The notes under the pieces were generated by a model. That model made no database searches, was not told the origin of the DNA, and saw nothing but the letters and a program-made list of their open reading frames with translations. This document shows positions 160 through 61,505 of a stretch of DNA of 64,000 nt, one piece after another. The stretch covers positions 5,828,001 through 5,892,000 of the forward strand of contig NC_043021.1 of the NCBI RefSeq assembly GCF_006345805.1. Reading direction: 5' to 3'. The DNA comes from Octopus sinensis (Eukaryota). Positions within the stretch are counted from its first letter, which is position 1. The number at the start of each line of letters is the position of its first letter. The position numbers and the translations under genes were made by a program.

Positions 160-25750
<25,591 letters not shown>

Positions 25751-41275: not shown

Positions 41276-41614
41276 ATGGTTACTTTATTACCGCCTCTAC
41301 CCATCTTTCGGCGATGCTTGCCCCACGTTTTCTTTTTCTCGTCTTTCTTCTTCTTCTTTGCGAATTGTTCCACTAATGGAAGAACAACAACGAAAGGAAT
41401 CGTCATACGGCACTTACTGTCGCAGACGGCAGCTACGGACTTGGACGGCAGAAGTTCGCACCCGACCGAAGAAGCCCCAGTTGGTCTACTAGTCAGCACC
41501 GCTGCCGCCTCTGCTACCACCATTACTACTACCACCACCACACCCGCCGACGTTAATGCGGGTGGTGATAGCGCTTGGGGTGGGATTTGGCCCAGGAACC
41601 ACTTCGAAGGTGTG
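41276..41614 (+). CDS. MMP exon 1 (signal peptide plus Thr/Ala-rich extension)
   Basis: MVTLLPPL..hydrophobic FFFSSFFFFFA..NHFEGV|gtaagt; phase 0 matches exon 2. Confidence 0.78.
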
Positions 41615-44078
41615 GTAAGTCCAATATTTTTTCTTTTTTTTTCTTTTTTGCACAAATGTTAATATTGCGGCCACCACAACCTTGAGCCGGCGAAGAAAAT
41701 CTACTCAGTCATTTGACCTGCTAGAAATAACAGCCAAATCTCTTTCCAATCATACCTTATTCCCTATTTTCCCCTTTTAAATGTACATGTGAGATAATGT
41801 GGCCCTGGGTTTCCTGCACATACCAAAAAAGTTGGATGGTCACGGCTGTATAGTCTTTGGTTATAATATTTGCTCGATCAGGGTTGACCTGGTCAAAACA
41901 AAACAACGACTCTTGTGTAGCGATTGTTCGGCCCCTTGTTACAATGACATAGGATGGGGTATACGGGCAGCACAGAGGGACCACTTTATTACACATGTGT
42001 TTTGCTGTATGTAGTTGATAGAATGTTACATTTAAAGAAGAGGGAGACCAATTCGGTTATTGCAGAAGACGGCCCAAAACCACGCTGCTCCACCGACTCC
42101 ATTCCGGCCTCGACAGGACTGCCTCTCTTCAGAACACAAGAAATTGAAAAGGGGCAACCAAACTGAAAAGATCCCTATATTATCCAAAATTGTCTTTCCC
42201 ATTTTTCCTAAAGACAGAAAGGGCGTAAGGTGAAAGATTTGGCTGCTATTTCTAGCAGGTCGAGTGACCTCATGAAGACTACCACGTTTATTATTGTTGT
42301 CATTTAGCCCCAGGTCAGCTCTCATCGAGCAGAGTTATGATTAAAGGCGTTCACACTGTCACGCCTGCATCTAAGAGAATTTAATAGATCACATTTTAAA
42401 AATCTGCGTGTCAGGTTCAGGAGTGGCTGTGTGGTGAGTAGCTTGCTTACTAACCACATGGTTCCAGGTTCAGTCCCACTGTGTGGCACCTTGGGCAAGT
42501 GTCTTCTACTATAGCCTCGGGCCGACCAAAGCCTTGTGAGTGGATTTGGTAAACAGAATATATGTATATGTATATATATGTGTGTGTTTGTGTGTCTGTG
42601 TTTGTCCCCCCAACATCGATGCTGGTGTGATTACGTCCCCGTAACTTAGCGGTTCGGCAAAAGAGACCGATACAATAGGTACTAGCCTTATAAAGAATAA
42701 GTCTTGGGGTCGATTTGCTTGTCTAAAGGTGGTGCTCCAGCATGGCCACAGTCAAATAACTGAAACAAGTAAAAGAGTAAAAGAGAGTGACAGCAGTATT
42801 GTTTTTCTTGAAATTAATTAATCATTAAGATAATGTGTATTTTTTTCCTACTCACTACAGACATAATTTGTAGTAAATCCGAGTATCTGTCTCTATTAAG
42901 TATGCTAGCATCCACTTAATGCTTTTGTTTTACATGCAGAGGGGGACCCTGCAGCCCTATTGCATCTCCTTGTTATTCCCATAGTTGTTAGTTTGGATGT
43001 TGCTGATGTTATAACTATTATTTAGTTGTGTTTGTTGTTTAGTTCTGGGTCAGCTACAATCCAGTGGATATTATGATCAAAGGGGTGCCCCAGCATGGCC
43101 ACAGTCCAGTGACTGAAACAAGTAAAAGAGAACCTACTTTATATTTCTTCAGAAGTGGTGTGAGTGGTGTATCTAGAGTAATACACATCTAATGTGACAT
43201 TCCAATTATGAAAGACAATAAACTATATCACTTAATGGCCTCCTGCCATGTGGGTATGGTCTGGCAGGAGAACTGTCTACTTTGGTATGGTTTTTACAGC
43301 TGGATGCCCTTCCTAGCACCAACCACTTTACAAAGTGTACTGGGCGCTTTTTTATGTGGCACCAGCATCGATAAGGATACCCAGTAACTTGCAAGAAAAA
43401 CCCTCGAGTGAGGGTGGCACGTAAAAAGCACCAACCGATCATGGCCGTTGCCAGCCTTGCCTGGCACCTGTGCCAGTGGCACGTAAAAAGCACCCACTAC
43501 ACTCATGGAGTGGTTGGCGGTATGAAGGGCATCCAGCTGAAGAAGCACTGCCAGATCAGACTGGAGCTTGGTGCAACCTTCTGGCTTCCCAGACCCCGGT
43601 CGAACAGTCCAACCCATGCTAGCATGGAAAACGGATGTTAAATGATGATGATGATGATGAGCAAGGAGTAGTATCAAGGGAGGTGGCTTTATGCCAGGTG
43701 ATAGAGATTAGGGTATGTAAAGAGTGACAGAAATAGGTATCTTGCAGTATAGGAAATACATAGGTACCTCAGGTAGAGAGAGATAAAGAGAGAGGATAGG
43801 GAAGAGATGATGATGTGATGGGGCATACACTCAAGTTCCAGTGGAACCAAGAAATGGGTAGGTAAAGTTAGTGAGATTGTAAAAGGAGAGTTAGAGATGT
43901 AAGAGAGAGGGAGATATGTAGTGAGTGGGTACAGGTAGAGAGAGGGGGTGTTGGGAGGATATGTTATGGGGAAAAGATTTGACAGGGACACATTGTATGC
44001 AGGTAGGTTTGTGAAGATGCAAAGGGAGAGTGGGAGATAGAGAGGAGGGGAATACAGCAAGTGGTATGTGTGTGTGTT

Positions 44079-44160
<82 letters not shown>

Positions 44161-44498
44161 TTTATTCAAAGCAGCAGAAAATTCAACAAAAACCTGTTAC
44201 TCTGAGTTTCCCGTTGCCGTTCGTCAGACAGTTTTTGCTAGAATGGAACCGATATGTGGATTCTATCCAGACTATTGTAAACGCTACACCTTTAAAAAAA
44301 TGGACTTGTTTGATTGGCCCTGATAGAATCCACATATCGGTTCCATTCTAGCAAAAACTGTCTGACGAACGGCAACGGGAAACTCAGAGTAACAGGCTTT
44401 TGTTGAATTTTCTGCTGCTTTGAATAAAGCATATTTCTCTACCACTGGTATTTGAGTACTCTTTTTTCCACCTTGTTTCACATTTATGTGTTTACTCC

Positions 44499-44553
<55 letters not shown>

Positions 44554-46378
44554 ATATTTAGCATGCTTGGGTATATTTGAACATGATAAGACCTTTTGCT
44601 GCAGATATAGTCCCAAGAAAAAATTCAATAGTCCCTCAGATAGAAGTCAACACATTGTTTCCCAGAATGAGGTCAAGAATCTCCCTAAAATAGGTCAATT
44701 GTTCCCTGGAACATAAGACAATAAAACCACAAAGTTTATTTCCTTCATTGATTTGCCTTTTTATTCTTTTATTCTAGAATTATCTAATACGGTATGGCTA
44801 CCTCCATCCTGGTTATGGTTGGTTCCTTGGCAATACTGAAGCCAAGATTGAACTTCAAGCTGCTCTCCAGAGATACCAAAGAGTTGCAGGAATAACAGTT
44901 ACAGGTTAGACTTGTATTTTTTATTGATTTTTACCGATTTTTATTGAGTGTCGTTGATTTTTTTTTATTAGTTATTTACATTTTAAGAATCTTTATTGAC
45001 TTTTGTCCATTATTATTGATGTTGTTGGTTGCTATGGTTTCTTATAAGTGTTGTTCTGAAAGTGTTGTTCCAAAAGTGTTGTTCTGAAAGTGTCATTCTG
45101 AAAGTGTTGTTCTGAAAGTGTTGTTCTAAAAGTGTTAAGTGTTGTTCGGAAAGTGTTGTTCGGAAAGTGTTTTTCTGAAAGTGTTGCTCTGAAAGTGTTG
45201 CTCTGAAAGTGTTGTTCTGAAAGTGTTGTTCTGAAAGTGTTGTTCTGAAAGTGTTCTTCTGAAAGTGTTGCTCTGAAAGTGTTGCTCTGAAAGTGTTGTT
45301 TTGAAAGTGTTGTTCTGAAAATGTTGTTCTGAAAGTGTTGTTCTGAAAGTGTTGTTCTGAAAGTGTTGTTCTAAAAGTGTTGTTCTGAAAGTGTTGTTCT
45401 GAAAGTGTTGTTCTGAAAGTGTTGTTCTTGTATACAACAAAAGCTTGGCCTCCAAACACATCATTTACTAACCGACATTTTGTGTTTTTTCTCAAGGAGG
45501 TATTGAGTATCATTTGGAATGGAATTGAAAGCTGATGTCAGTGGTTGATTGAATGGTGTGTGTGTGTGTGGGAGGTGGGGCTTTTTTTATATTATTATTC
45601 AAGCCATCCTGTGTCTTCACAGGCTTTGCAAGTAGCTTGGTGGCCGAGTGGTGTAATCTGAATTTGTGTTATGAATCGGAGCATGTGCATTTTGTGATCT
45701 TTCGAGGGTGTGTGCATAGGAAGGTAATGGATTTGAATGATATTAGTCTTTTTGTTCTTGTCGTTGTTGTTGTGAAAATTTCAGTTGTTCTAACATTGTT
45801 GTAAATAACTGCCGGAAATGAGGAGGAAAGAGATAAACTGTCCACACCCACATTACACTCTCTCTTCCCCCCTCTCTCTCTTCCTCTCACTCTCTCTTCC
45901 TCTCATTCTCTCTTCCTCTCACCCTCTCTTCCTCTCATGCTCTCTCCCTCTTCCTCTCTCTCTCTCTCTCTCTTTCTCTCCCCGCTACTCATCCAACACA
46001 CCCATATGCAAACTTACACACACGCACAACCTGAATCCCACCACCTGCTAATTGAGGATGTCACTGGTTATTTCGGTGAATAATAAAGGCATCCTCCTTT
46101 CCCTCCTCTCCCTGCCCCCTCCTCGTCATCATCATCATCACCATCACTATCATGACCAACATCATCATCATCATCAGGATCATGATCATGATCACCATCA
46201 TGATCACCATCATCATCACCATCATCATCACCACCATCATCATCACCATCATCATCATCATCATCATCATAATTCTCATCCTCCTCCTCCTCATCATCCT
46301 CATCATCATCCTCATCATCATCCTCATCATCATCATCATCATCGTCATCATCCTCATCATCACCATCCTCATCATCAC

Positions 46379-46423
<45 letters not shown>

Positions 46424-47565
46424 TACTATTAAGGTGGTGAGCTGGCAGAATCATTAGCTCACCGGGTGAAATGCTTAGTGGTATTTTGTCTGCCATTACG
46501 TTCTGAGTTCAAATTCCACCAAGGTCGACTTTGCTTTCAGCTTTTCAAGGTCAGTAGATTAAGTACCAGCGAAACACTGGGGTCGGTGTAATCGACTATT
46601 CCCCTCCATCAAAATTTCAGGCCTTGTTCCTATAGTAGATAAGATTATTATTATTATTATTATTACATCTCTTCACATTACTGTCACTGCTACCACCACC
46701 ACCACCACTGCCACCATCACGACCAACCACCACCACTAGTTAAACAACAACAACCCTGATTATTACATCTAAGGTGCAGGAGTGGCTGCATGGTAAGTAG
46801 CTTGTTTATCAACCACATGGTTCTGGGTTCAGTTCCACTGTGTGGCACCTTGGGCAAGTGTCTTCTACTATAGCCTTGGGCCAACCAAAGCCTTGGGAGT
46901 GGATTTGGTAGACGGAAACTGAAAGAAGCCTGTCGCATATATGTATATGTATATATATATGTGTGCGTGTTCGTGTGTCTGTGTTTGTTCCCCCAACATC
47001 GCTTGACAACCGATGCTGGTGTGTTTACGTCCCCATAACTTAGTGGTTTGGCAAAAGAGAACGATAGAATAAGTACTATGCTTACAAAGATAAGTTCTGA
47101 GATCGATTTGCTCGACTAAAGGTGGTGCTCAAGCATGGCCACAGTCAAATGACTGAAACAAATTTGTAAAGAGAGATATATGTTTAAGAAGTAATTAAAC
47201 TCACGAAGTGCATTTGGCAGTAAAACTTTGTCTCAGAAAAAACCCCTCCAACCCATGCCAGCATGGAAAAGTGGATGTAAAGTGATGCTGCTGCCATTGG
47301 TTATGATGATGAAATGTGCTAACAAAGCAGTTTCAGTAAGGTTGCTCAACCAGCTAGAAATATCAGCTAAACTACCACCCTCTTAAAGAAGGCAGGACAT
47401 ACAGGCACAGGCATGGCTGAGTGGTAAGAAGCTTGCTTCCCAACCTCATGGTTCCAGGTTCTGTCCCTCTGCATGCCACCTTGGGCAAGTGTCTTCTACT
47501 ATAGCTTTGGGTCGACCAAAGCCGTATGAGTGGATTTGGTAAATGGAAACTGAAAGAAGCTTGCT

Positions 47566-47596
<31 letters not shown>

Positions 47597-50500
47597 CATA
47601 CACACACACACATATAAGTGTGTGTGTATGTCTTTGTGTCTGTTTGTCCCCCACCACCGCTTGACAACTGGTGTTGGTGTATTTATGTCCCCATAACTTA
47701 GCGGTTTGGCAAATAGGTTAGTTTTGACTTAAATTACCTCAAGGCAGTGCTGCAGCATGGCCAATGTCACATGATTGAAACAAGTAAAAGATAAGCAATA
47801 AAAGATATTAGATTAGGCGTAGGAGTGGCTGTGTGGTAAGTAGCTTGTTTATGAACCACATGGTTCTGGGTTCAGTCCCACTGCGTGACACCTTGGGCAA
47901 GTGTCTTCTACTATAGCCTCGGGTCAACCAAAACCTTGTGAGTGGATTTGGTAGACGGAAACTGAAAGAAGCCCGTCGTATATGTGTATATATATGTATG
48001 TGTGTGTGTGTGTGTGTGTATGTTTGTGTGTCTGTGTTTGTCCCCCCCAACATCTCTTGACAACCGATGCTGGTGTGTTTACGTCACCATAACTTAGCGG
48101 TTCGGCAAAAGCGACCGATAGAATAAGTCCTGGGGTCGATTTGCACGACTAAAGGCGGTGCTCCAGCATGGCCACAAACAAGTGAAATAGTAAATAGTAA
48201 ATAGATTCACTTTGAAGCAGAGGATAACCATCGCTGAAATGGTTTGCTGGATCAAGCTTGACCTAGGGTTAAACACACAACAACACAAATAGCAAAAATG
48301 ATTATAATAACAACAACAATTGTCATATCATATATTTAAAATTAACTGATGTAAAAAAAAAAATGGGGAGCAAAAAGGAGGAGGAGGAAAGGAGGTGATG
48401 CTGGTGGGGGTCGGTGGAAATGTGGCTGGTCTGCTGTTTATCATCTTCAAGCAATTTTTTTCCAACAATTGGGTTTTCCTGCTCTCTCTTTGACCTTTTA
48501 TAAATATGCACCAAGTAACCTTTGATCTGTGTGACCTTTCCTACATCTTACACCCACCTCCTTTTGCCTTCCACTTGTTCTCTACCCTATCTAGGAGCTT
48601 AGTTATATTGTGTGTATGTGTTAAGGATATATATTATATATGCTTGTGCATATGTATATATGTATGGATGTATCATATCTATATGTATATATATACACAT
48701 AAATATATATATAATATAAATAATATATATATGATAGATCGTTAGCCACTACACATATTTTTTTTCTCTCCTTGTTTTCTGTGTCCCTTTCTGTAGAAGA
48801 GCATAGGCTCGAAACGTAAAAGACTTTTTCTATTCCTGAGCGTTATACTAATACATCTGTTTGTTTTGTACACCACCTGTCTTTGTCTTTTGTTGTTTTT
48901 TTCGTAAACTCTCCCTATATATATATAACTAATAAACCTCACCAAAAAATATAAGAATACTCTTTTAAATTAGTAGAATGGTAAGCTAGAATATAATACT
49001 AAAGAACCCACAGGAACCTTATCTCCCTTTAAGACCAAACCCAGCAATAAATACATAACTGGATGAGGTAATCTTCAGGTCACAAGGAAATATGACTATT
49101 TATAGTAACACCAACACCTCATAAAGGTGTGTAACTGGTACTTAATTTACTGACCCCGAAAAGATGAAAGGTAAAGTCGACCTCGGCAGAATTCGAACTC
49201 AGAACGTAATAGCAGATGAAACACCGCTAAGCATTTCACCCGGCGTGATTCAGGCATAGTGTATCTAGGACTATATCTAATGTATCCTTTTTTAAGGACT
49301 TGTTAGTTAACCCTTTTGTTGGCACATTTATGTTGAAATACTCTGCCTTTGATTCACATAATTTTGAAAATAATAAAGAATTTAATTAAACAGATTTCTC
49401 ATGATTAATCAGGTGTTTGGAAATTTTGATGAAAAGTTTAAATTTAGATTGCTTTTAAACAAGGAATTTTTATCATAGAACCAAGGAGTTTCAGGTGGGT
49501 CAGTATGAGAATGGTTAAGAAAGATTTGGTTTATAATATTTTGTTCTATTTTATGCAGGTTTCTTTGATGAAAATACATTTAAAATGATGAGGAAAAAAC
49601 GATGTGGTGTTCCAGATATGAATTATGCACCAAGTTTAGGCCTGAGAGAAGCTATTTCTCCACGTCGCAAGCGAAGATTTGCTTTACAAGGTAAGTGGTC
49701 AGTGAATGTACCCACTACTTCTGCTCTTCATCAGAGATACACATATCATCAGAAGATCTTCTGGGAAGTGGTAAGTAGCTTGTCTACCAACCACATGGTT
49801 CCGGGTTCAGTCCCACTGCGTAGCAACTTGGGCAAGTGTCTTCTACTATAGCCTCGGGCCGACCAAAGCCTTGTGAGTGGATTTGGTAGACGGAAACTGA
49901 AAAGAAGCCCGTCGTATATATGTATATATATATATATATATATGCATGTGTGTGTTTGTGTGTCTGTGTTTGTCCCCTAGCATTGCTTGACAACCGATGC
50001 TGGTGTGTTTATGTCCCCGATACTTAGCAGTTCGGCAAAAGAGACCGATAGAATAAGTAGTGGGCTTACAAAAGAATAAGTCCCGGGGTCGAGTTGCTCG
50101 ATTAAAGGCGGTGCTCCAGCATGGCCACAGACAAATGACTGAAACAAGTAAAAGAGTAAAAGAGAGAGAGCAATAGATTTCACGACACCATATCACTGCC
50201 ACAAAATCATAATCACAGCATCACCAATAAATTGGAAATGTGTTTACAGGCTTATATGATATACCACATGGTGTGAGACAAATTTGGGAAGTTTTATAAT
50301 GGCGATACTTTCCACTATCTACACACCAGAATAAAGAACACATCCATATGAATACCTGAGCAGTTAATAAAATATATTAAAAAATGCCATATAGGTGCAG
50401 GAGTGGCTGTGTGGTAAGTAGCTTGCTTACCAACCACACGGCTCCGGGTTCAGTCCCACTGCATGGCACCTTGGGCAAGTGTCTTCTACTATAGCCTCGG

Positions 50501-51300
50501 GCCAACCAAAGCCTTGTGAGTGGATTTGGTAGACGGAAACTGAAAGAAGCCTGCCGTATATATGTATATATATGTATGTGTGTGTGTATTTGTTTGTGTC
50601 TGCGTTTGTCCCCCCAACATCACTTGACAACCGATGCTGGTGTGTTTACGTCCCCTGTAACTTAGCGGTTCGGTAAAAAAGAGACCGATAGAATAAGTAC
50701 TGGGCTTACAAAAGAATAAGTCCCGGGGTCGATTTGCTCGACTAAAGGCGGTGCTCCAGCATGGCTGCAGTCAAATGACTGTGAAACAAGTAAAAGGGTA
50801 AAAGAGAGAGAGAGAGAGAGAGAGTAACCAGAACATTACCATTCACCATCAAAGCAGTGAGCAAAAATCTTGAGAACATTGTACATCTATAACTACATTA
50901 CTCAATGAAGTCTTAGTATTGAGAATGTGTAATTTCACTGCAAATAGAAATCACCAGAAATTTCAAATGTTGTGTATATCTCATTCAAAACAGAACATCT
51001 ACATACATACATTGGATCACTCTGAATATGCAGATGTGCTTCACAGAACACAGCTTGGATGACTGTCCCTTATATACACCAACACACACACACACACACA
51101 CTGATGCCACAGCCACATAACTGACACTTTGTGCCAGTGGCACATAAGTTTGTGTATATATTTGTATATTTGTCTGTTCAATCTTTATAGGGTCAAAGTG
51201 GAAGCATCGTGAAATTACATACAAGGTCAGTGACTATCCCCAAAACCTGTCCCACCATGATGTGGATGCTACCATAAACGCTGCATTCAAGGTAAGAAAC

Positions 51301-51362
<62 letters not shown>

Positions 51363-54300
51363 AATTGGAAAAGCGTAAGACCGGTGGGGTCTGAGGGTAT
51401 CGGATGAAGAGCGGCGAGCTGGCAGAAACGTTAGCACGCCAGGCGAAATGCGTAGCCGTATTTCGTCTGCCGTTACATTCTGAGTTCAAATTCCGCCGAG
51501 GTAGACTTTGCCTTTCATCCTTTCGGGGTCGATAAATTAAGTACCAGTTACGCACTGGGGTCGATATAATCGACTTAATCCGTTTGTCTGTCCTTGTTAG
51601 TCCCCTCTGTGTTTAGCCCCTTGTGGGTAGTAAAGAAACAAATTATTATTATTATTATTATTATCGAGTGAGAGAGCAGTGCATGCCATCAAAGTGACAC
51701 TGGGGTAGAATATACGAAGCCCAGTATACCCATCATGACTACCCATCTGATAAGGGTACACCAGGCACATGCATCACAACCATAGGTGCGCAACATGGTG
51801 ATCTCATATCCAGATAAACAGCACTTGACCTTGCAGGTGGAGTTCAGTTAGAATTATCTTCAGGTCGAATAGTCCATCCCACTCAAAAGGTCCCTGAGTA
51901 AGGTTTGTTTTAAGGAGTGGCTGTGTGGTAAGTAGCTTGCTTACCAACCACATGGTTCCAGGTTCAGTCCCACTGCGTGGCATCTTTAGCAAATGTCTTC
52001 TACTATAGCCTAGGGCTGAACAAAGGCTTATGAGTGAATTTGGTAGATGGAAACTGAAAGAATCCCTTCTTATATATATGTATGTGTATGTTTGTGTGTC
52101 TGTGTTTGTCCCCCTAACATTGCTTGACAACCGATGCTGGTGTGTTTACGTCCCTGTAACTTAGCAGTGTGTGTGTGTGTCTGTGTCTGTGTGTGTGTAT
52201 ACGTGTCTGTGGAGGAATTACTCTTTTACTTGTTTCAGTCATTTGGAGCACCGCCTTTAATCGAGCAACTCGACCCCGGGACTTATTCTTTTGTAAGCCC
52301 AGTACTTATTCTATCGGTCTCTTTTGCCGAACCGCTAAGTAACGGGGACATAAACACACCAGCATCAGTTGTCAAGCAATGCTAGGGGGACAAACACGCA
52401 AACACACACACGCATATATATATATATACAACGGGCTTCTTTCAGTTTCCGTCTACCAAATCCACTCACAAGGCTTTGGTCGGCCCGAGGCTATAGTAGA
52501 AGACACTTGCCCAAGGTGCCACGCAGTGGGATTGAACCTGGAACCATGTGGTTGGTTAGCAAGCTACTTACCACACAGCCAGAGGAATTATATATTTTTA
52601 ACTCTTTTCTTACTTTACTTTTTCAGGTTTGGAGCAACATAACATTTCTACAGTTTACGTGGAAGCCAAGGGATATTGTAGACATCAACATCCGGTTCCT
52701 GTCTGGTAACCATGGTGACGGGATGCCATTCGATGGGCCAGATGGAATCACAGCTCATGCTTTCTTCCCAAACAGCAACAACGATGACTTTGATGGAGAT
52801 ATTCATTTTGATGCTGAAGAAAATTGGGTGCTGAGTAACAAAGCTGACCAAAAATCAGGTATTTGGGTAGATTCGGTAAATTTCATCCCTTCCTCATGGT
52901 GCCAAAGTTAAAAACCATTATTGTATAGGCAGGTGTTACAGGTTCAGCTCCAATGTGTGACCCCTTGGGCAAATATCTTCTACTATAGCCTTGGCCCAAC
53001 CAAAGCCTTGTGAGTGGAGTTCAAGAATGGAAACTGAAAGAAGCCCATCGTGTATATATGTCTGTGTGTGTGTGTTTGTGTGTGACTGTGTCTGTGTTTG
53101 TTCCCCACTGCTGCTTGACGACCGGTGTTGGTGTGTTTACATCCTTGTAACTAGGCAGTTTGACAAAAGAGAGAGAAAGAGAGATAGTGATGCGGTGTCG
53201 AGGTGTACCCTCGAGGTACAAGGAGGTGAATATAAATGGATAAAGGATTGGACAGGGTGCATGTGCAGAGAATTCAGAAGAGTGCAAAGGGGGAGAAGGG
53301 AAGGAAAGAGGGAATACAGTGGGGTGGGAGTGAAAGAAGTATATAAGGGAGCAACAGAATAACAGTGAAATGGTTGGTAGTAGTGAGGATACACTCTCTT
53401 TGAAAATCAGACAATTCTTTTGCTTCTGGTGCTCATAGCATGGCTAGTTGCTATAAACATTTAATATAATGAGAGGTAATATTTATACCCCTTAAATGCA
53501 GATGTTCTGTTAGAACAAACTATACTGTGGTAGATGCCATGAGAGAGGTTCTCATATTGACTTTTTGATGCAAAACACACTCTTGTTTATGTTGCTTGCG
53601 GGGTGATCTGGATCCACCAAGTCCAGTGCTGAGACTACCAGATCACATAATTTTGACTTTCCTTGGTCTAATCAATGAGGATGTTTGACTGCTAGAGATA
53701 GCAGCGACTCACCTCTCTGCTAATGAAATATAGATTAACAGTGCCAGAACTGGGCAACTGTCTTCTACTACAACCTTGGGCTGACCAAATCCTTGTTAGG
53801 GGATTTGGTAGATGGAAATTGAAAGAAGCCATCATATATGTGTGTGTGTGTATATATATCTACATATACATATATATTGTTATATATATATATATATATG
53901 TATCGATGTTTGTGAATTTTTGTGTCTGTGTTTGTCCTCCTGCCACCACTTGACAACCAGTGTCCATGTGTTTACATCCCCGTGACTTAGCAGTTTGGCA
54001 AAAGTGACTGACAGAATAAGTATCAGGTTTTGAAAAATAAGTACTAGGGGTCATTGCATTCGACTAAAAGTTCTTCAAAGTGGTGGCCCTCCATGGTCTC
54101 AAGTAAAAGATGAAAGAAGATTACAAAATGAAAGTGAAAGTGGTTTATAAAATTTATTTTATTTATTTATTTTATATAGTTTTAGCTCACGAGCTGTGGC
54201 CATGCTGGGGCACCGCCATTTGCTGGGGCACCGCCATATGTCTGTCTTTTAAATAGATGTCATGACTTTTTCATGTTGTAATTGTCTCAATTCACCAAAC

Positions 54301-57300
54301 AACAAAAGGTCCAACTAAAAATATTGTTAATTGTTACATTGATTAATTAACCTGTTGTTGTTTTTTTTTATAAAAGGTCAGATCAGTCTACTGTGTCAAG
54401 CGATCCACCAAATTGGTCACTCATTAGGATTATTCCACTCTGAGAGCATTTCAGCACAAATGTGGCCATACATCATGGAATGCAATGGCACTTCAGTGCA
54501 TGCTGATGACATTCAAGCACTACAGTCACTCTACAGTAAGTATAGCATCTTTATTACACACATGTGAGTGAGAACACTTTGAGATATTTTTGGTATCTAA
54601 CATATGTCAGATACTGCGAGCGCTGCTTCTGATTGGTCAATCCATGGTGATGACCTGAGGTCACGGTGATAGCGCTGCTTCTGATTGGTCAATTCATGGT
54701 GATGACCCGAGGTCACAGTGACGGCACTACTTTTGTCATTCATAAGTTACAACTAAACGTGAAGAATTTAGTTATTGGGTTAATAAAATATGGTCGTTTA
54801 TTTGTGTGTAATAAATAAAATACCAAACTCATTCCCTATGGATACCGTATTTATTACAACTCGTGGCTTGTAATAAATACGGTATCCATAGGGAACTCGT
54901 TTGGTATTCTCTCTGTATCCCCTACCTCTTATTCAACAGCCTCTGCTATGTTGGACATAACAGCCTATCTTGTTGGTGTTAAATAACTGATGACTTGTTT
55001 CATGATTATAACATTTTATGAGAAACATTTCCCTTAACCCTTTCGTTACTGAATTTATTTTGAGATGCTCTGTGTTTCTTTCAATTACTTTAAATATAAC
55101 AAAGAATTTAGTAAAATTACTTGGTTATCATTCAGCTAGTGCTAGGAACATAAATTGTGTCTAAGGTTTGGTGGAAGATTTTAATTCAAAACTTATGAAA
55201 ACAAGGCATTTGTACTCAGAGCCAGAGCCAGTTTCAGCCAGGTTGGTATCGAAAAGGGTTAAGACTTAATTTGAGAAGGAGTGGAAAACACTCTGTAGTG
55301 TATTAATTGGTAACAATAATCTGATAAACAATAGATACAGAGTTTAATCCTTTAGCATTCTCATTATTCTATCAAAATTAATGCTAATTTATTCATATTC
55401 TTTTGAATTAATCATGCCTTATCTCATAGCTTAGAGATTTTGATGAGGTAGCTGTTAACTTTTAGAATGATATTGTAGGGTTGATATAAGATGCCAGAAC
55501 AGGCCAGTTTGAACATAAAACAGGTGGAATATTTTGGCCGGATCTATGGCTGGTTTAAATGCTAAAGAATTAAGTCCCATTAGAAGAACTGTTGCTTTTT
55601 TCTGTCTCAATTTGGTGTTTTTAAAATCTTAATAATATTTGCAATAAACTCTTTGCTATGTTGGACATGAGTTGTAACATCCTGTGTTGTTGGTGTTAAA
55701 TAGCTGATGATTTGTTTCATGGAGATAAATTTTTATCAGAAATGTTTCCATAAAACTTCATTTGAGAAGAAGGAGTGAAAAACACTCTCTTGTGGCAATA
55801 ATTATATTTGATAAACAATAGATACAGGGTTTTATCCCATTAGAAGACCTGCTGCATTTTTTGTTCTAATTTGTGTTAAAATTTTTATAACATTTGCAAT
55901 AAATGCTTCAAAGCTAATTCGTAATTTTAAATCTCTCTCTATATAAACGGCAGTTTGTCTGTGCGTTTTCTGTGTGTCTGTTTTCTCGTACCCTCACTCT
56001 GACCACGGCTTTCAACCGATTCTGATGAAACTTGACACACACATAGCCCAATGTCATAATTCAAAACTAACGCAGCTAAAGTTTTGAAAAGTTCCCCCAG
56101 TTCTGAAAAAAATCGATAAATTCGACATGGGGTCGAGAATCAGAACCCAAACCACAGACCGTCTAGGGGACGCAACTCCACCTTTTTTAACTCTCAAAAA
56201 AAATTTACCATCATTTTTTTCCCATTTTTTTGCTATTTTTTGGCTATAACTCTCTAAAAATGCTTTATAGTTATTTCCCTTACAAACCTGAGCAACGCCG
56301 GGCGATACTGCTAGTATGTTATATTTTCAATCAACAGGTCCCTCTGAGGGCATCCAAACTGCAGTTTCTAGTAATATGTCAACCAACAAGGATGAGAACT
56401 TTGAAGATGACCATTCAGGGTCACAGGGTTCAAGTTCTACAACAGTCAGCAGCTCCCACTTGACCAGCCCATCGATGTCAGCTGGGGACAGATTCTGGTG
56501 GACACACAGCCAAGACACACAGACAGAACGACAAACCTATCCATATTGGTACCGCTTCTCCAGACTGGGGCCATCAACGACCTCACCCTCGGCCTTACTG
56601 ACATCAGCTCAAACTACAGTTAGGCCAAAGTACTGTGATGGCAGATTGGATGCTATCACTGTTGCAACAGATCACCTGACCTATGGATTTAGAGGTTGGA
56701 TTTTAAAAAAAAATTTCTTTTTCTTTTTCAAAAGATGGATTAGTGGTTTTGTGGCTGAGCGTAACGTTAGAGTGATCAGTTCAAATCATACTCATGATTC
56801 AGAATATTATTATGCTTTAATTTTTTATTGTTGTTTTTAAGAATGGTTGTCATAATGTAAAGGTTATAAGATAAGGTCAGGGGTTATGTGAGAGAGGGAG
56901 GTCATAGAGTATTATCATAGCAAGAGTTCATAAAGAGAAGAGGTCATAGAATGAGGTTCTACAGCAGTCAAAAAGTGAATAGGTCAAAGAAAGAGGTCAT
57001 TAAGTAAAGACTATGGGATTAGTTAAAGGCCGATAGATCGGAGATCATGGTGTAACAATCTCCACCACTGTCCAATCTACTTCTGTATGTCTATAGATTC
57101 TGGTGGTAACCACAGCAGAGATTAACAAGGTGAATGTGTAGGTTGCTTTTGGGGTAGGGTGTAAGTCAATTACACCAACCCCAGTGCTCAACTGGTACTT
57201 ATTTTATCAACCTTGAAAGAATGAAAGGCAAAGTTGACTTTGGTGGAATTTGAACTCAGAATGTAAAGATGGTTGAAATGCCACTAAGCATTTTGTCTGG

Positions 57301-57872
57301 TATGCTAACAATTCAGCCATCTCACTGCCTTCTAACAGCTACAATTTTAACTGTTAGATCTTCAAGTACTGGAGTCAGCAGGAGAGTCCACTATATGTAC
57401 TAGATGAGCTTCTGCTCAGTTTCTGTCATCAAATTCGATGACTGGCATCCATGATAGTAGAGCATTAAGAGTACCATACAAGTGAGATCATTGCCAGAGC
57501 AACAAGCTGGCTTCCATGCCAATGGTACATTAAAAACACCATTCGAGCTACTAGCATTTGTGTAGGTGGCACCTGAAAAAAACATTTGAGTGAGGTCGTT
57601 GCCAGTGCCACTGGACTGGCTCCTGTGCAGGTGGCACATAAAAAGCACCATTTTGAGCGTGGCTGTTGCCAGTACCACCTGACTGGCCCTCGTGCCGGTG
57701 GCACGTAAAGGCACCCACTACACTCTTGGAGTGGTTGGTGTTAGGAAGGGCATCCAGCCGTAGAAACTCTGCCAGATCAAGATTGGAGCCTGGTGCAGCC
57801 ATCTGGTTCGCCAGTCCTCAGTTGAATCGTCCAACCCCTACTAGCATGGAAAGCGGACGCTAAACGATGATG

Positions 57873-57903
<31 letters not shown>

Positions 57904-58721
57904 CTTCTGTAAATTCACTTGCAAGTTATTGGTCAACTTAGGTCTTTGTTAGAAGGCAGTTGCCCATGGTGTTGTACAGTGGAATTGGTCAGAGAAATAT
58001 AATGACTGAAATGTGGTGTTAGAAAAGTTGAGTAGATATCTACTTTCTGAAAGTGGAGATGGTAAAGAATAAAATAAAAGAAATCAAGGTGTTAGCAAGT
58101 TAAGTAGTGATCAATGTTTTATTTCAGATGAACTGGTGTTCAGGTTCAACCAGATCAATGTTGATTACACATTTCCAAAGAAAATTCAAGAAGTCTTCCC
58201 CAGGGGTCCTTTGTCTGTAGATGCTGCAGTGACCTTCAGTAAAAATCGAAAGAAAGCAGCCCTTGGTAGCACATACCTAATAAAAGTGAGTTGGCCTATT
58301 TATTGTTTTCTTTTGTTTGTTTATTTTTTTACTATTGTTTTTTTTTTTTGTTGATGTCTAGCCAAAAGTGATCCAGATTCCTTACGGCATTTTGGTCATT
58401 GGTCAAACAACTAACAGCAATTCAAAGGACACGTTAAAATGGACTGACACACAATGTGTTCTGTTGTAAGTACAGAGCAACACATGTGAGGGGACACTGA
58501 AAAGTTCCTGGCTTTAAGGGTATCGTGAAACGCCTGATTGGAGGCCCAACCTTGAGCTCTTTTACAGGGCTTAGAAAAACTGAAGGTCCACTGCAATATG
58601 TGTGAATATGAGAGCTCAATATGTTGACTAAAATCATAATTAACCGATCCTCTTGTATTTTCTTTTATCCAAAGCCAGGAACTTTCCGGCAGGTATGTTT
58701 GAATGGTGGGCTATATTGAAT

Positions 58722-58759
<38 letters not shown>

Positions 58760-61505
58760 GGCAGTTTTCACAAGACCAGCTAAAACAGACCAGGCTGATC
58801 CATCCTATCCAACAGGTTAGGAAGTATTCGTTTAACTTATGAATTTTCTGGTCCCATAACAATAACATCACACACACACACACACACACACACACAAGAA
58901 GGTGCTGAAAATTTCCTTGCTTTATGGGTATTGAGAAAGGCCTGGCTGGATGTCCAACCTTTTGAGTTTTTTACAGGGCTTAGAAAAACTGAAGGACCAC
59001 TGCAATAAGTGTGTGAATCTGAGAGGGAAAGATGTTGAATAAAATCAGGGTGGAATGCAGTGCATTATACTAAATTTTTTCCTAAATTTAGTGACATCTT
59101 CTTTATTTAGGGTTTAGTAAGTGAAGAAAGGGCAGTCCCCATTGTAGTGTGTGCGCGATACAAATATAAAGGCACTTACCTTCTCTTCCTAGTGATGGAG
59201 ACCCTTCGGTGGTAACGGATCCTTCGACACAGCCCCAACCCGAACACTAATGATAGCAGCTGCTGCACCCAACCTAGCGACGTCTTCCCACGTCCTCACA
59301 CCTCGATGACCCTGATTCGAAAGGCCGAATCCCCGCTGCCTGCGCACGTCTCACGGCTACCCCTTCTGGTTGCCCCAGCTTCTGGTCAACGCACCCAGTT
59401 GCTGACGTTATCCTACACCCATTTATACTGTTTTTTTATGACTATCAAAACTTGGAGGAGAAAGAAGGAAGATTGTGACATCATTACACTGGACACCTGT
59501 TCAAAATGCTTACAAAGGAGCAAACTCTGCTAAATTCATCCAAGGGTCAGGTGATGGTGTTACATCAAGTAATAAATTAACATCAGTATGCCCCCTATGC
59601 AGACTATTTGGCAGTTTCCTAAATAGTCTCTGTCTACTTAATCTTACAAGTTTTGGGTCAACTTAAAACCATGGTCAAAGACACCTATTGAAAGTGTTCA
59701 ACTCATCATTGTCATCATCATCATCATTATCATCATCATCATTGTCTGTTTTCCAAGCTAGCATGAGTTAGATGGTTTGACTGGAGATGATAAGCCACAG
59801 AGCCGCATCAGGCTCCAGCCTGTTTTGGCTTGGTTTCTACAGCTGCTCTATGGAGTGTATTGGGTGCTTTTCATGTGTCACTGGCATGAATGCCTTTTAC
59901 ATGTCACCGGTACTAGTCACAACTTCCTGCAGAATTGAACTCAGATTGTCCATGATTACAAAGCAAACTTTTTAACTACTGAGCTCTATAAAAAATGCAT
60001 ATTGAGTTGTTATATAAGCTTTTTTTACTTTTTTTTTTATCGCTTTCCTTTTAAGGGCAACCTAGTTTGGCGCTACAGACACACAGAGGACGGTTTCCAA
60101 CTGGAACACTTCTATCCAAAACCCTGGGCCAAAGAATGGGATGTAACTGGTACCAAAATTGAATCAGCCTTTAAATTAGGCCGGAAAATCTACCTGTTAA
60201 TTGGTGAGTAATTTTTGCATGTGTGTGTATATGTCACAGATAGCAGATGTGTGTTTGTGTTCATTGACATGCCATGACATTCATTATATGTGTGTATATT
60301 CTGTATGTGTGTATGTGTGTTGACATCATGGAAGCCATGTTTTGTCAAGATTAACAAACGAAAACTGTGTTTAATTGTTTGCATTAATAAATAGAGATCC
60401 AAATATCACAAAAATTTGTACTGCAATGCTGAAGGTAAGTATGAAAATAAATATTAAAAAAATTAAGATAAAATATACTATTTCTGAGATATTTTGGTTA
60501 CACACAAACATCTCTAAAGTTTTAGTATTATTATGATATGTTAACCACAACTATTTTTATATATTTTCTCCCAGATGTACTTAATTCTTTATTTCAAGAA
60601 ACACATGGTATATTTCTGAAATCATTAATAATTATTTAAAATTTTGGCTCAAGACCAACAATTTTGAGGTGTGGGGAAGTAAGTTGCATCAACCTCCTGT
60701 ACTCAGATGATACTTATTTTATCTTGAGCATGCATGAAATAGCAGCCAAATCTTTCCTTTTCAGGGGACTGAAAGGCAAAGTTGACTGTGGCAGGATTTG
60801 AACTCAGTATCTAGGGTGTTAGAAGAAATACTACTTGGCATTTTGTCTGGTACACTAATATTTCTGCTAGCTCCACTGCCTTTCAAACTATTTATAATAA
60901 AGACAATACTATTAAGTTATTGCTAAGGCGGTAAGCTGGCTGAGTCATTAGCACACCGGGCAAAATGCTTGGCAGTATTTTGTCTGTCTTTACATTCTGA
61001 GTTCAAATTCCTCTGGGGTTGAATTTGTCCTTCATCCTTTTGGGGTTGATAAAATAAATATCAGTCAAGCGCTGGGGTCAATGTAATTGGCCTATCCCCT
61101 CCCCTAAAATCGATGGCCTTGTGCTAAAATTTTAAATCAATAATAAGTTATTCCAACAATGATTTATAATTAACGTTCTCTTCATTTTCTCCGATCTTAG
61201 ACAATCGAATCTGGTTGTTGAAAGGCAAGAAATCTCGTCAACGGAAGTATGAGAAGAAGCGAATTAAACTGTTCAACCAGCTGCCAGACTTCCAGGCTGC
61301 AGTACAATGGATCAACAGGAATACCTATTTCTTCACTGGCAATGAGTATTACAGAGCTGACTTGCCAGCACAGAGGAGACGATATGTACTGAATGGACCG
61401 AGGGATACAGCATATTGGTGGTTTGGCTGTAATGAAATACCACACATACGGCAACCTTTTGAAGATAAAGATGATAACGGGTGGGATCTTGAACTGACTA
61501 AATAA
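41276..61505 (+). CDS. Matrix metalloproteinase (M10A family), secreted and furin-activatable, with hemopexin domain; 10 exons, 685 aa; catalytic Glu->Gln
   Basis: Signal peptide, propeptide YLIRYGYL, cysteine switch KRCGVPD, furin site RRKRR, HGDGMPFDG..AHAFFP..GDIHFDAEE, HQIGHSLGLFHS, Met-turn AQMWP, Ser/Thr hinge, four hemopexin blades ending WWFGC. Exons total 2058 nt with consistent phases. Orthology to a numbered MMP cannot be assigned. Confidence 0.93.
44194..44231 (-). ncRNA. Minimal type-I hammerhead (inverted copy)
   Basis: Reverse complement of 44358..44395. Confidence 0.7.
44358..44395 (+). ncRNA. Minimal type-I hammerhead ribozyme
   Basis: ctgt-CUGACGA-acg(gcaa)cgg-GAAA-ctcagag-UA-acag; palindromic stem III; predicted cut after 44391. 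Confidence 0.7.
44778..44904 (+). CDS. MMP exon 2 (propeptide)
   Basis: ttctag|NYLIRYGYL...LQAALQRYQRVAGITVT(G)|gttaga. Confidence 0.9.
45047..45428. repeat. 14-bp minisatellite (aaagtgttgttctg)n, ~27 copies
   Basis: Direct tandem repeat in MMP intron 2. Confidence 0.92.
48787..48822 (+). ncRNA. Variant minimal hammerhead-like motif
   Basis: cttt-CUGUAGA-a-gagc(atag)gctc-GAAA-cg-UA-aaag; core carries A6U and one extra A. Confidence 0.4.
49559..49690 (+). CDS. MMP exon 3 (cysteine switch, furin site)
   Basis: tgcag|FFDENTFKMMRKKRCGVPD...RRKRRFALQ(G)|gtaagt. Confidence 0.93.
51191..51291 (+). CDS. MMP exon 4 (start of catalytic domain)
   Basis: tatag|SKWKHREITYKVSDYP...INAAFK|gtaaga. Confidence 0.92.
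51410..51640 (+). mobile_element. SINE family B (Nin/Deu-domain-like). Other approximate copies: plus at 7407-7625, 15560-15787, 16157-16380, 31515-31930 (two in tandem), 46431-46645, 60925-61140; minus at 49130-49247, 57155-57330, 60640-60880
   Basis: gagctggcagaaacgttagc..gagttcaaattcc B box..gcctttcatcctttcggggtcgataaattaagtaccag. Confidence 0.8.
52627..52858 (+). CDS. MMP exon 5 (structural Zn/Ca sites)
   Basis: tttcag|VWSNIT..HGDGMPFDGPDGITAHAFFP..GDIHFDAEENW..|gtattt. Confidence 0.94.
54377..54535 (+). CDS. MMP exon 6 (zinc-binding motif and Met-turn)
   Basis: aaaag|QISLLCQAIHQIGHSLGLFHSESISAQMWP..DDIQALQSLY|gtaagt. Confidence 0.93.
55038..55258. mobile_element. TTAA-target MITE (piggyBac-like); related copy at 49311..49514
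   Basis: TTAA|ccctttcg...cgaaaaggg|TTAA. Confidence 0.75.
55348..55569. mobile_element. Second TTAA-target MITE family; copies at 2837..3008, 22977..23270, ~13890..14097 and ~39262..39370
   Basis: TTAA|(c/t)cctttagcatt...aatgctaaag(a/g)|TTAA; shared core tatctcatagctt..gagattt. Confidence 0.7.
55932..56314 (+). mobile_element. Non-autonomous Helitron
   Basis: a|TCtctctctatataaacgg...gagcaacgccgggcgatactgCTAG|t. Confidence 0.8.
56338..56694 (+). CDS. MMP exon 7 (hinge and start of hemopexin domain)
   Basis: aacag|Ser/Thr-rich linker..PKYCDGRLDAI..TYGFR|gttgga. Confidence 0.87.
57440..57903 (+). mobile_element. (GAT)n-tailed retroposon family D. Other approximate copies: plus at 4885-5260, 23360-23627, 30187-30465, 32177-32482, 43410-43660; minus at 19513-19838, 28815-29280
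   Basis: Internal gtggcacgtaaaagcacc repeats; aggaagggcatccagc; ccatgctagcatgg; (gat)n tail; variable 5' truncation. Confidence 0.8.
58128..58285 (+). CDS. MMP exon 8 (hemopexin)
   Basis: tttcag|ELVFRF..FPKKIQEVFP..VDAAV..TYLIK|gtgagt. Confidence 0.9.
58487..58693. mobile_element. Mariner-derived MITE (partial second copy at ~58895..59046)
   Basis: TIRs ctgaaaagttcctggcttt / aaagccaggaactttc. Confidence 0.6.
60056..60203 (+). CDS. MMP exon 9 (hemopexin)
   Basis: ttaag|GNLVWRY..FYPKP..IESAF..IYLLI|gtgagt. Confidence 0.9.
61201..61505 (+). CDS. MMP exon 10 (end of hemopexin domain, stop)
   Basis: cttag|NRIWLL..FQAAVQW..TYFFTGNEYYR..WWFGC..LTK*. Confidence 0.9.

Follow-up and report, generated by a model that had tools for sequence, protein, structure and literature searches.

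This locus raises the question of whether an MMP gene of Octopus sinensis that carries Gln in place of the catalytic Glu still encodes a protease, and what its product would do otherwise. Within the window, the whole analyzed stretch of 64,000 nucleotides, the gene occupies 41276..61505 on the + strand and consists of 10 exons and 9 introns, all GT-AG. The translation of its 2058-nt CDS matches exactly the 685-aa record P0002 (Octopus sinensis XP_029650943), which is named 'collagenase 3-like'. The Pfam domains of P0002 were PG_binding_1 (114-166), Peptidase_M10 (202-363), and Hemopexin, with matches to PF00413 (E 4.9e-45) and PF00045 (E 1.2e-10); the furin motif RRKRR comprises residues 191-195. 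Translation of window:54394-54483 (C317..C346) yields CQAIHQIGHSLGLFHSESISAQMWPYIMEC, which contains the zinc motif HQIGHSLGLFH of exon 6 with codon 54409-54411 reading CAA (Gln322), three His ligand codons that are all CAC, and the Met-turn ATG at 54460-54462. The features of the gene are as follows.

41276..41614, + strand: exon 1, with the start codon, a Thr-rich disordered N-terminus, and a WPRN motif (exact match to P0002 1-113)
41315-41371, + strand: hydrophobic signal-peptide-like stretch of exon 1, approximately residues 14-32 (hydropathy; model helix 15-29)
44778..44904, + strand: exon 2, prodomain helices, PG_binding_1 (Pfam, CDS match)
49559..49690, + strand: exon 3, with the cysteine switch KRCGVPD at 49597-49617 and the furin motif RRKRR at 49663-49677
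51191..51291, + strand: exon 4, start of the catalytic domain (match to P0002)
52627..52858, + strand: exon 5, structural zinc ligands H262, D264, H277, and H293 kept (alignment)
52750-52755, + strand: edge-strand residues 275-276 of exon 5, drifted from the usual Leu-Ala (alignment)
54377..54535, + strand: exon 6, with the zinc motif HQIGHSLGLFH at 54406-54438, the Met-turn at 54460-54462, and Q318 (translation; spliced contigs)
54394-54396 and 54481-54483, + strand: Cys pair of exon 6, C317 and C346 (translation, alignment)
54409..54411, + strand: Gln322 codon CAA replacing the catalytic Glu (assembly, second copy, contigs)
56338..56694, + strand: exon 7, disordered linker, then the start of the hemopexin domain (C463, 56634) (model, alignment, splice joint)
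56487-56501 and 56538-56564, + strand: conserved aromatic islands of exon 7, DRFWW and YPYWYRFSR (alignment)
58128..58285, + strand: exon 8, hemopexin blades 1-2 (model, CDS match)
60056..60203, + strand: exon 9, hemopexin blades 2-3 (model, CDS match)
61201..61505, + strand: exon 10, hemopexin blades 3-4 up to C661, and the stop (model, CDS match)
61431-61502, + strand: conserved acidic C-terminal tail of exon 10 (alignment)

The first-pass annotation had described the three His ligands, the Met-turn, the furin site, and the 685-aa frame as intact, and translation and the identity of the CDS with P0002 confirmed this description. Elsewhere in the window, exon-like coiled-coil stretches of an upstream gene were observed at 5626-5760, 6761-6886, ~20590-20640, and 24990-25193 (+ strand), and three of them yielded no significant match in Pfam.

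The reading of the codon as CAA rather than GAA was upheld by translation, by a second copy in the assembly, and by spliced contigs. The second copy (G000:C10211:53000-70132; L021, L022) comprises exons 2-10 on a 70-kb unplaced contig and also carries CAA. It is 99.4% identical to the window gene including introns, with 8 mismatches and 101 gap positions in 17,184 columns, none of them in exons; it is annotated separately as XP_029656442, and as a probable haplotig it makes the MMPs appear more numerous. Among the 12 zinc-motif exons found in the scanned genome loci, CAA is confined to the two copies of the window gene, and the other 10 carry GAA or GAG. Four of the 24 listed sequencing runs (X5, X8, X12, and X19) were compared with the gene. 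In X12 (organism A) and in X19 (organism B, from a different study), the contigs span 54375-54535 without any differing letter and lack the intron 54536-56337 with its GT..AG ends; this joint, 54535>56338, is the only splice joint seen in the contigs. The match between joint and intron fits an origin from spliced RNA, the RNA status of these contigs being a guess; none of the listed runs is recorded as RNA, which speaks neither for nor against such an origin. X5 exhibited no depth on exon 6, X8 covers exon 6 with 3 other letters at unlisted places, and neither contains the joint. None of the three differences printed for X19 in exon 7 alters the encoded amino acid. A base-call error is excluded by the CAA reading of the second assembly copy and of the X12 and X19 contigs, which derive from two organisms. 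The claim that A-to-I editing is unable to restore Glu was borne out by the codon table: A-to-G changes convert CAA only into CAG, CGA, or CGG, which encode Gln or Arg, and rescue by this route is thus impossible. Contigs drop rare variants and are hence blind to low-level Gln-to-Arg editing.

The substitution extends to a whole family. The general-base Glu of active metzincins is replaced by Gln in all 16 of the 17 family proteins that hold the motif, each reading HQIGHSLGLFH, and the 17th is a 330-aa fragment without the region. Because many of the 17 rows are near-identical, the family amounts to approximately four independent lineages. The motif is identical in O. sinensis, O. vulgaris, O. 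bimaculoides, Argonauta hians, and Acanthosepion (Sepia) pharaonis (CAE1289724), and it also occurs in unnamed Logan proteins of two clusters. The Gln-bearing lineages span the octopod/decapodiform split, which dates back ~270 Myr. A situation in which the orthologues keep Glu and the O. sinensis copy alone has relaxed did not hold, and Gln across the orthologues, together with intact frames and spliced contigs, excludes a recent mutation or a pseudogene. The family forms a single 50% cluster among 1.84 billion representatives (1250 bits; the next clusters scored 384 and 326). A search with residues 260-644 of P0004 returned only four family clusters; no family member named as Nautilus, squid, or bivalve was among the matches found, from which absence does not follow.

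The origin of the family was analyzed with trees from which the E/Q column had been removed. The results placed the family as a single clade (UFBoot 100) within a molluscan Cys-pair subfamily, itself recovered with a UFBoot of 100 in a tree of 40 of the 63 rows, from which 16 distant rows and 7 rows of partial exons had been excluded, and of 95 in a tree of 20 rows. The subfamily includes an octopus paralogue on G000:C6, O. bimaculoides XP_014785209, Lottia XP_009053959, Haliotis XP_067667989 and XP_046568580, and chiton XP_064613332. Every other subfamily member with the zinc motif carries Glu; the chiton record does not have that exon. The likeliest sister of the Gln family is the paralogue on G000:C6 (UFBoot 93, 85, and 66), a grouping absent from the hemopexin-only tree. 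Because the Gln family is one clade inside a subfamily of Glu-bearing members, a single loss of Glu, affecting one duplicate and predating the divergence of the coleoid groups, is the most likely history. In the tree, P0002 falls among molluscan MMPs and is separate from fish MMP-13. The names 'collagenase 3-like' and 'MMP14' on family records are unsupported by the tree, and no membrane anchor is present; by hydropathy, the final 60 residues contain no hydrophobic stretch. One of these records, P0269 (CAE1289724, Sepia pharaonis), is called MMP14 although its complete relatives have no membrane anchor; it begins with a spurious low-complexity stretch, and its C-terminus is incorrect. Substituted motifs were also observed in MMP records elsewhere, with HQ in Owenia (P0130) and two unnamed proteins and HN or HS in Daphnia; the non-HE records comprise P0130 (Owenia), the P0267 cluster (HQ in four of four members), P0082, P0032, and P0292 (Daphnia). 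In the tree, the substituted-motif MMPs of other lineages fall outside the Gln family and thus represent independent origins.

Several related loci were recovered in the genome. The G000:C6 paralogue (20927100-20942100; L023-L027), from which five exon pieces were recovered, carries HEFGHSLGLMH and the same Cys pair, and its sequence suggests that it could serve as a natural active control. O. bimaculoides XP_014785209 was considered as its orthologue and rejected because the two are only 52-56% identical and the O. bimaculoides protein maps to C1. A third subfamily member resembling XP_014785209 lies at G000:C1:75097527-75184725 and on C8902 (L032-L034); its zinc exon was not found in the 60 kb downstream. 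XP_014785209 itself shares the WPRN motif with the window gene and has Glu and a His/Lys-rich tail, and the O. bimaculoides isoform record XP_014785210 is without the zinc motif. The chiton protein P0127 (Liolophura sinensis XP_064613332), in which the whole zinc-binding exon is missing, exhibits the highest hemopexin identity to the family (39-41%); either the gene model is in error, or catalysis was lost independently in this lineage. For TIMP, at least one genome match was identified at G000:C11:69474521-69489710; it is split into exons, the first of which begins CSC...HPQ. Cephalopods are reported to have one TIMP or none (PMC10755359).

We compared the catalytic domain of the family rows with that of 87 other MMPs. 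The metal ligands C171, H262, D264, H277, H293, H321, H325, and H331 were unchanged in the six family rows shown, and D269, D295, and E298 were unchanged in the family; the calcium ligands, like those of zinc, do not vary. Gln at 322 is invariant while neighboring residues vary, which may reflect selection on its amide for some function within the cleft. Changes were found at positions of the edge strand and the S1' wall (275, 276, 318, and 343), in some or all members. Position 275, Leu in 85 of the 87 other MMPs, reads T, T, L, T, and N in the family, with Argonauta retaining Leu275; position 276, Ala in all 87, is Ser in both cuttlefish-type rows; position 318, Val in 81, is Gln or Leu in the family; and the Met-turn position 339, Met in all 87, is Leu in the P0005 cluster. 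Among the Glu-bearing relatives, residues 275-276 remain LA or VA, residue 318 is V or T, and the Met-turn retains its Met. Positions 275, 276, and 318 align to what we take to be the edge-strand and S1' residues of MMP-1, with the corresponding structural role. The cysteine switch had been called intact in the first-pass annotation; its Cys is indeed kept, and invariant across the family, but in P0002 the switch reads KRCGVPD instead of PRCGVPD. The Pro-to-Lys form is that of the octopods, the Sepia cluster has PRCGVPD, and Lys at this position also occurs in 9 of the 87 other MMPs. The furin site is canonical in octopods and reads TQKR in one cuttlefish-type cluster.

Other peculiarities of the family are not specific to it. 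The cysteines C317 and C346 are invariant and co-occur; they align with positions that we take to be 214 and 243 of MMP-1, presumably at the S1' pocket, where they may form a disulphide. Position 343 (the S1' Tyr) is changed in the family and likewise in its Glu-bearing relatives. The hemopexin propeller has a net charge of +16 to +17 in the family, compared with a median of +2 in the other rows, and reaches +22 in Lottia and +15 in Haliotis. The Cys pair, the lost Tyr, and the basic propeller were considered as signs of inactivation and rejected; because the Glu-bearing relatives have them too, they are no mark of a new role.

The domains of the family are conserved in an inverted order. Octopod and cuttlefish-type catalytic domains were 47-51% identical, compared with 80-83% for their hemopexin domains; P0002 was 57% identical to the cuttlefish-type proteins in the prodomain and 30-33% in the linker. 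Over 16 rows, 72 of 167 catalytic columns and 154 of 197 hemopexin columns were invariant. As controls, we used 3486 pairs among 86 Glu-bearing MMPs, which are non-independent, are mostly vertebrate and arthropod paralogues, and include no octopus-cuttlefish pair of an active MMP. In these pairs, hemopexin identity exceeded catalytic identity by at most +16 points, and in the 1171 pairs with 45-55% catalytic identity, hemopexin identity averaged 34% with a maximum of 60%. The domain trees revealed a stem of 0.80 and an octopod to cuttlefish-type distance of 0.21 for the hemopexin domain, and a stem of 0.34 and a distance of 0.94 for the catalytic domain. The hemopexin pattern suggests a burst of change followed by near-stasis, the course expected if a new binding partner was acquired. 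Conservation between octopod and cuttlefish-type proteins also extends to two aromatic islands of the linker (56487-56564) and to the acidic C-terminal tail (61431-61502), both of them candidate binding motifs.

An AlphaFold2 model built from 92 sequences had a mean pLDDT of 71.5, with the pro, catalytic, and four-bladed hemopexin domains mostly at 80-98 and disorder at residues 30-107 (pLDDT <50) and 370-456; the disordered linker comprises 94 residues. The best Foldseek match was proMMP-1 (1su3, E 1.6e-28), and the model catalytic domain superposed on those of MMP-1/8/12/13 with an rmsd of 1.6-2.3 A. An Atlas search returned only generic hemopexins, with hemopexin as the first match (0.94). 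The MMP fold is thus predicted to be normal. The signal-like helix and the lack of a C-terminal anchor point to a secreted product.

Descent and fold, with the matrixin domain, switch, metal ligands, and propeller, place the protein in MMP family M10A. It shares with the secreted furin-activated M10A MMPs a signal-like N-terminus, a prodomain with the switch, the furin motif, Peptidase_M10, a linker, and the four-bladed hemopexin domain, an architecture that is presumably like that of MMP-11, MMP-21, and MMP-28. It differs from them in Gln for Glu, the eroded cleft, the Cys pair at the S1' pocket, the conserved aromatic islands of the linker, the C-terminal tail, and the inverted domain conservation. 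The molluscan Cys-pair MMPs belong to the same clade and have Cys at -4 from the first His, the S1'-loop Cys, and no PxY Tyr, the basic propeller being shared by the gastropod members; in contrast to the Gln family, they keep HExxH, Leu/Val-Ala, and the Met-turn, and their hemopexin identity to it is 23-41%.

Naturally substituted metzincins have precedents. MtMMPL1, a protein without a hemopexin domain in which the change is reportedly Glu to Gln, is likewise a natural MMP with a substituted catalytic position, but it is a plant protein of independent origin. This legume MMP-like nodulin is described as having a function that may not need proteolysis (PMC2715019). Substituted HExxH motifs are reported to be common among zincins, with Glu most often replaced by Gln, and HQxxH or LQxxL ADAMs are regarded as decoys or accessory proteins (PMC3650047); these ADAMs resemble the octopus family in their substituted metzincin motif and differ in being membrane-anchored M12B proteins with disintegrin domains. 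The engineered MMP-9 E402Q, reported to lose activity and to keep its fold and TIMP-1 binding (PMC4224431), and MMP-1(E200A), reported to bind and unwind collagen that a cutter enzyme in trans then cleaves (10.1101/2020.08.28.272104), are altered at the same catalytic position but are laboratory mutants with an otherwise intact cleft. A further mutant, MMP-1 E219Q, is reported to be inactive on collagen while still degrading two fibrinogen chains (preprint 10.1101/853796). In the full-text literature on cephalopod and mollusc MMPs, inactive MMPs, and cephalopod pseudoenzymes, with subscription journals and supplements lying outside, no paper on the Gln-MMP family was found among the matches listed, nor did a full-text search for five accessions and the motif return one. 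No link to the window gene emerged from three cephalopod papers that mention an MMP (PMC8976471, PMC3349304, and PMC7551771). Natural Glu-substituted metzincins are already known from HQxxH ADAMs and MtMMPL1.

With Glu replaced by Gln, the family proteins likely no longer cut. Taking all readings together, it is highly probable that the protein is not a working protease, and the spliced contigs and the conservation support its description as a pseudoprotease, that is, the product of an expressed, conserved gene that has lost its catalytic residue. The first-pass annotation's suggestion of a probable pseudo-protease is thus supported by the CAA codon, by Gln in the orthologues, and by the erosion of further cleft residues. 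Its proposal of a decoy or a matrix scaffold was sustained in part: a scaffold or adaptor fits a hemopexin domain conserved at 80-83% beside a catalytic domain at 47-51%, whereas a decoy acting through the cleft agrees less well with the drift of that part. We consider that the family most probably consists of secreted zinc-binding pseudo-proteases that serve as adaptors, their hemopexin domain contacting a conserved partner in the matrix or on the cell surface, with a probability of about 0.6. An MMP gene would have duplicated, and one copy would have lost Glu for Gln before the octopod/cuttlefish split. The product would be secreted, with its prodomain removed by furin in octopods, and most proteolysis would have been lost, by analogy with engineered E-to-Q MMPs. 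The duplicate may then have taken on a new binding role, which would account for the long hemopexin stem and the subsequent near-stasis. Its four-bladed hemopexin domain would dock on a conserved partner, most likely a matrix polymer or a cell-surface protein; a polyanion such as a sulphated proteoglycan is a candidate because the net charge of the propeller, +16 to +17, suits one. The dead catalytic domain would probably be retained as a folded spacer or a second binding surface.

Other functions were weighed against this adaptor role. Edge-strand and S1' residues contact TIMP and substrate in known complexes; their drift, which differs between octopods and cuttlefish-type proteins, and the faster evolution of the catalytic domain make it unlikely that a zinc-loaded dead domain acts as a decoy through its active-site cleft by binding TIMP or by shielding substrates from active MMPs. 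The invariant zinc ligands and Gln nevertheless speak for such a decoy, as does the reported ability of MMP-9 E402Q to bind and neutralize TIMP-1 (PMC4224431), and with at least one TIMP match against at least 10 Glu-bearing MMP exons in the genome, a sink could matter. Slightly less likely still is a slow or narrow protease with weak Glu-free activity on one preferred substrate recruited by the hemopexin domain. Such an enzyme would explain why all zinc ligands, the switch Cys, and the octopod furin site are kept, and MMP-1 E219Q is reported to cut the fibrinogen alpha and beta chains (10.1101/853796). However, the alignment offers no obvious acidic residue near the zinc that would compensate, the Met-turn is lost in one cluster, the edge-strand Ala is lost in both cuttlefish-type clusters, and E402Q reportedly abolished the activity of MMP-9 (PMC4224431).

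The catalytic and hemopexin domains might instead act together on collagen, binding and opening its triple helices or guiding how fibrils assemble, and leave the cutting to an active paralogue, a role for which MMP-1(E200A), reported to unwind collagen for a cutter in trans (10.1101/2020.08.28.272104), and MMP-3, reported to bind collagen without cutting it (PMC6906530), offer models and for which Glu-bearing paralogues exist in the same genome. This role needs the cleft, which has drifted, and the 94-residue disordered linker is unlike the short linker of collagenases, so we regard it as improbable. An artefact, a recent mutation, or a decaying gene is scarcely credible: the duplicate copy on an unplaced contig indicates that the assembly is partly redundant, but Gln occurs in five named species and in spliced contigs, the frames are intact, the printed exon differences are synonymous in three of three cases, and the hemopexin domain remains 80-83% identical across the octopod/cuttlefish split.

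These findings correct an annotation, as transcriptome studies would score a gene named 'collagenase 3-like' or 'MMP14' as matrix-degrading activity. Non-proteolytic MMP functions are usually studied with engineered Glu mutants, and the family bears on the share of MMP biology that is carried out by binding alone. It supplies a full-length animal MMP that lacks the general base naturally and has long been conserved, with Glu-bearing paralogues in the same genome as controls, and gene knockouts are feasible in squid. A broader and more tentative reading, to which we assign slightly less than even odds, is that this is a coleoid-specific, lineage-wide animal pseudo-MMP, a duplicate that abandoned catalysis and was kept for ~270 Myr as a hemopexin-driven adaptor of the matrix or cell surface, with a partner both new and strongly conserved, and tied to cephalopod tissue, for which cartilage, skin, arm connective tissue, and regeneration are suggested.
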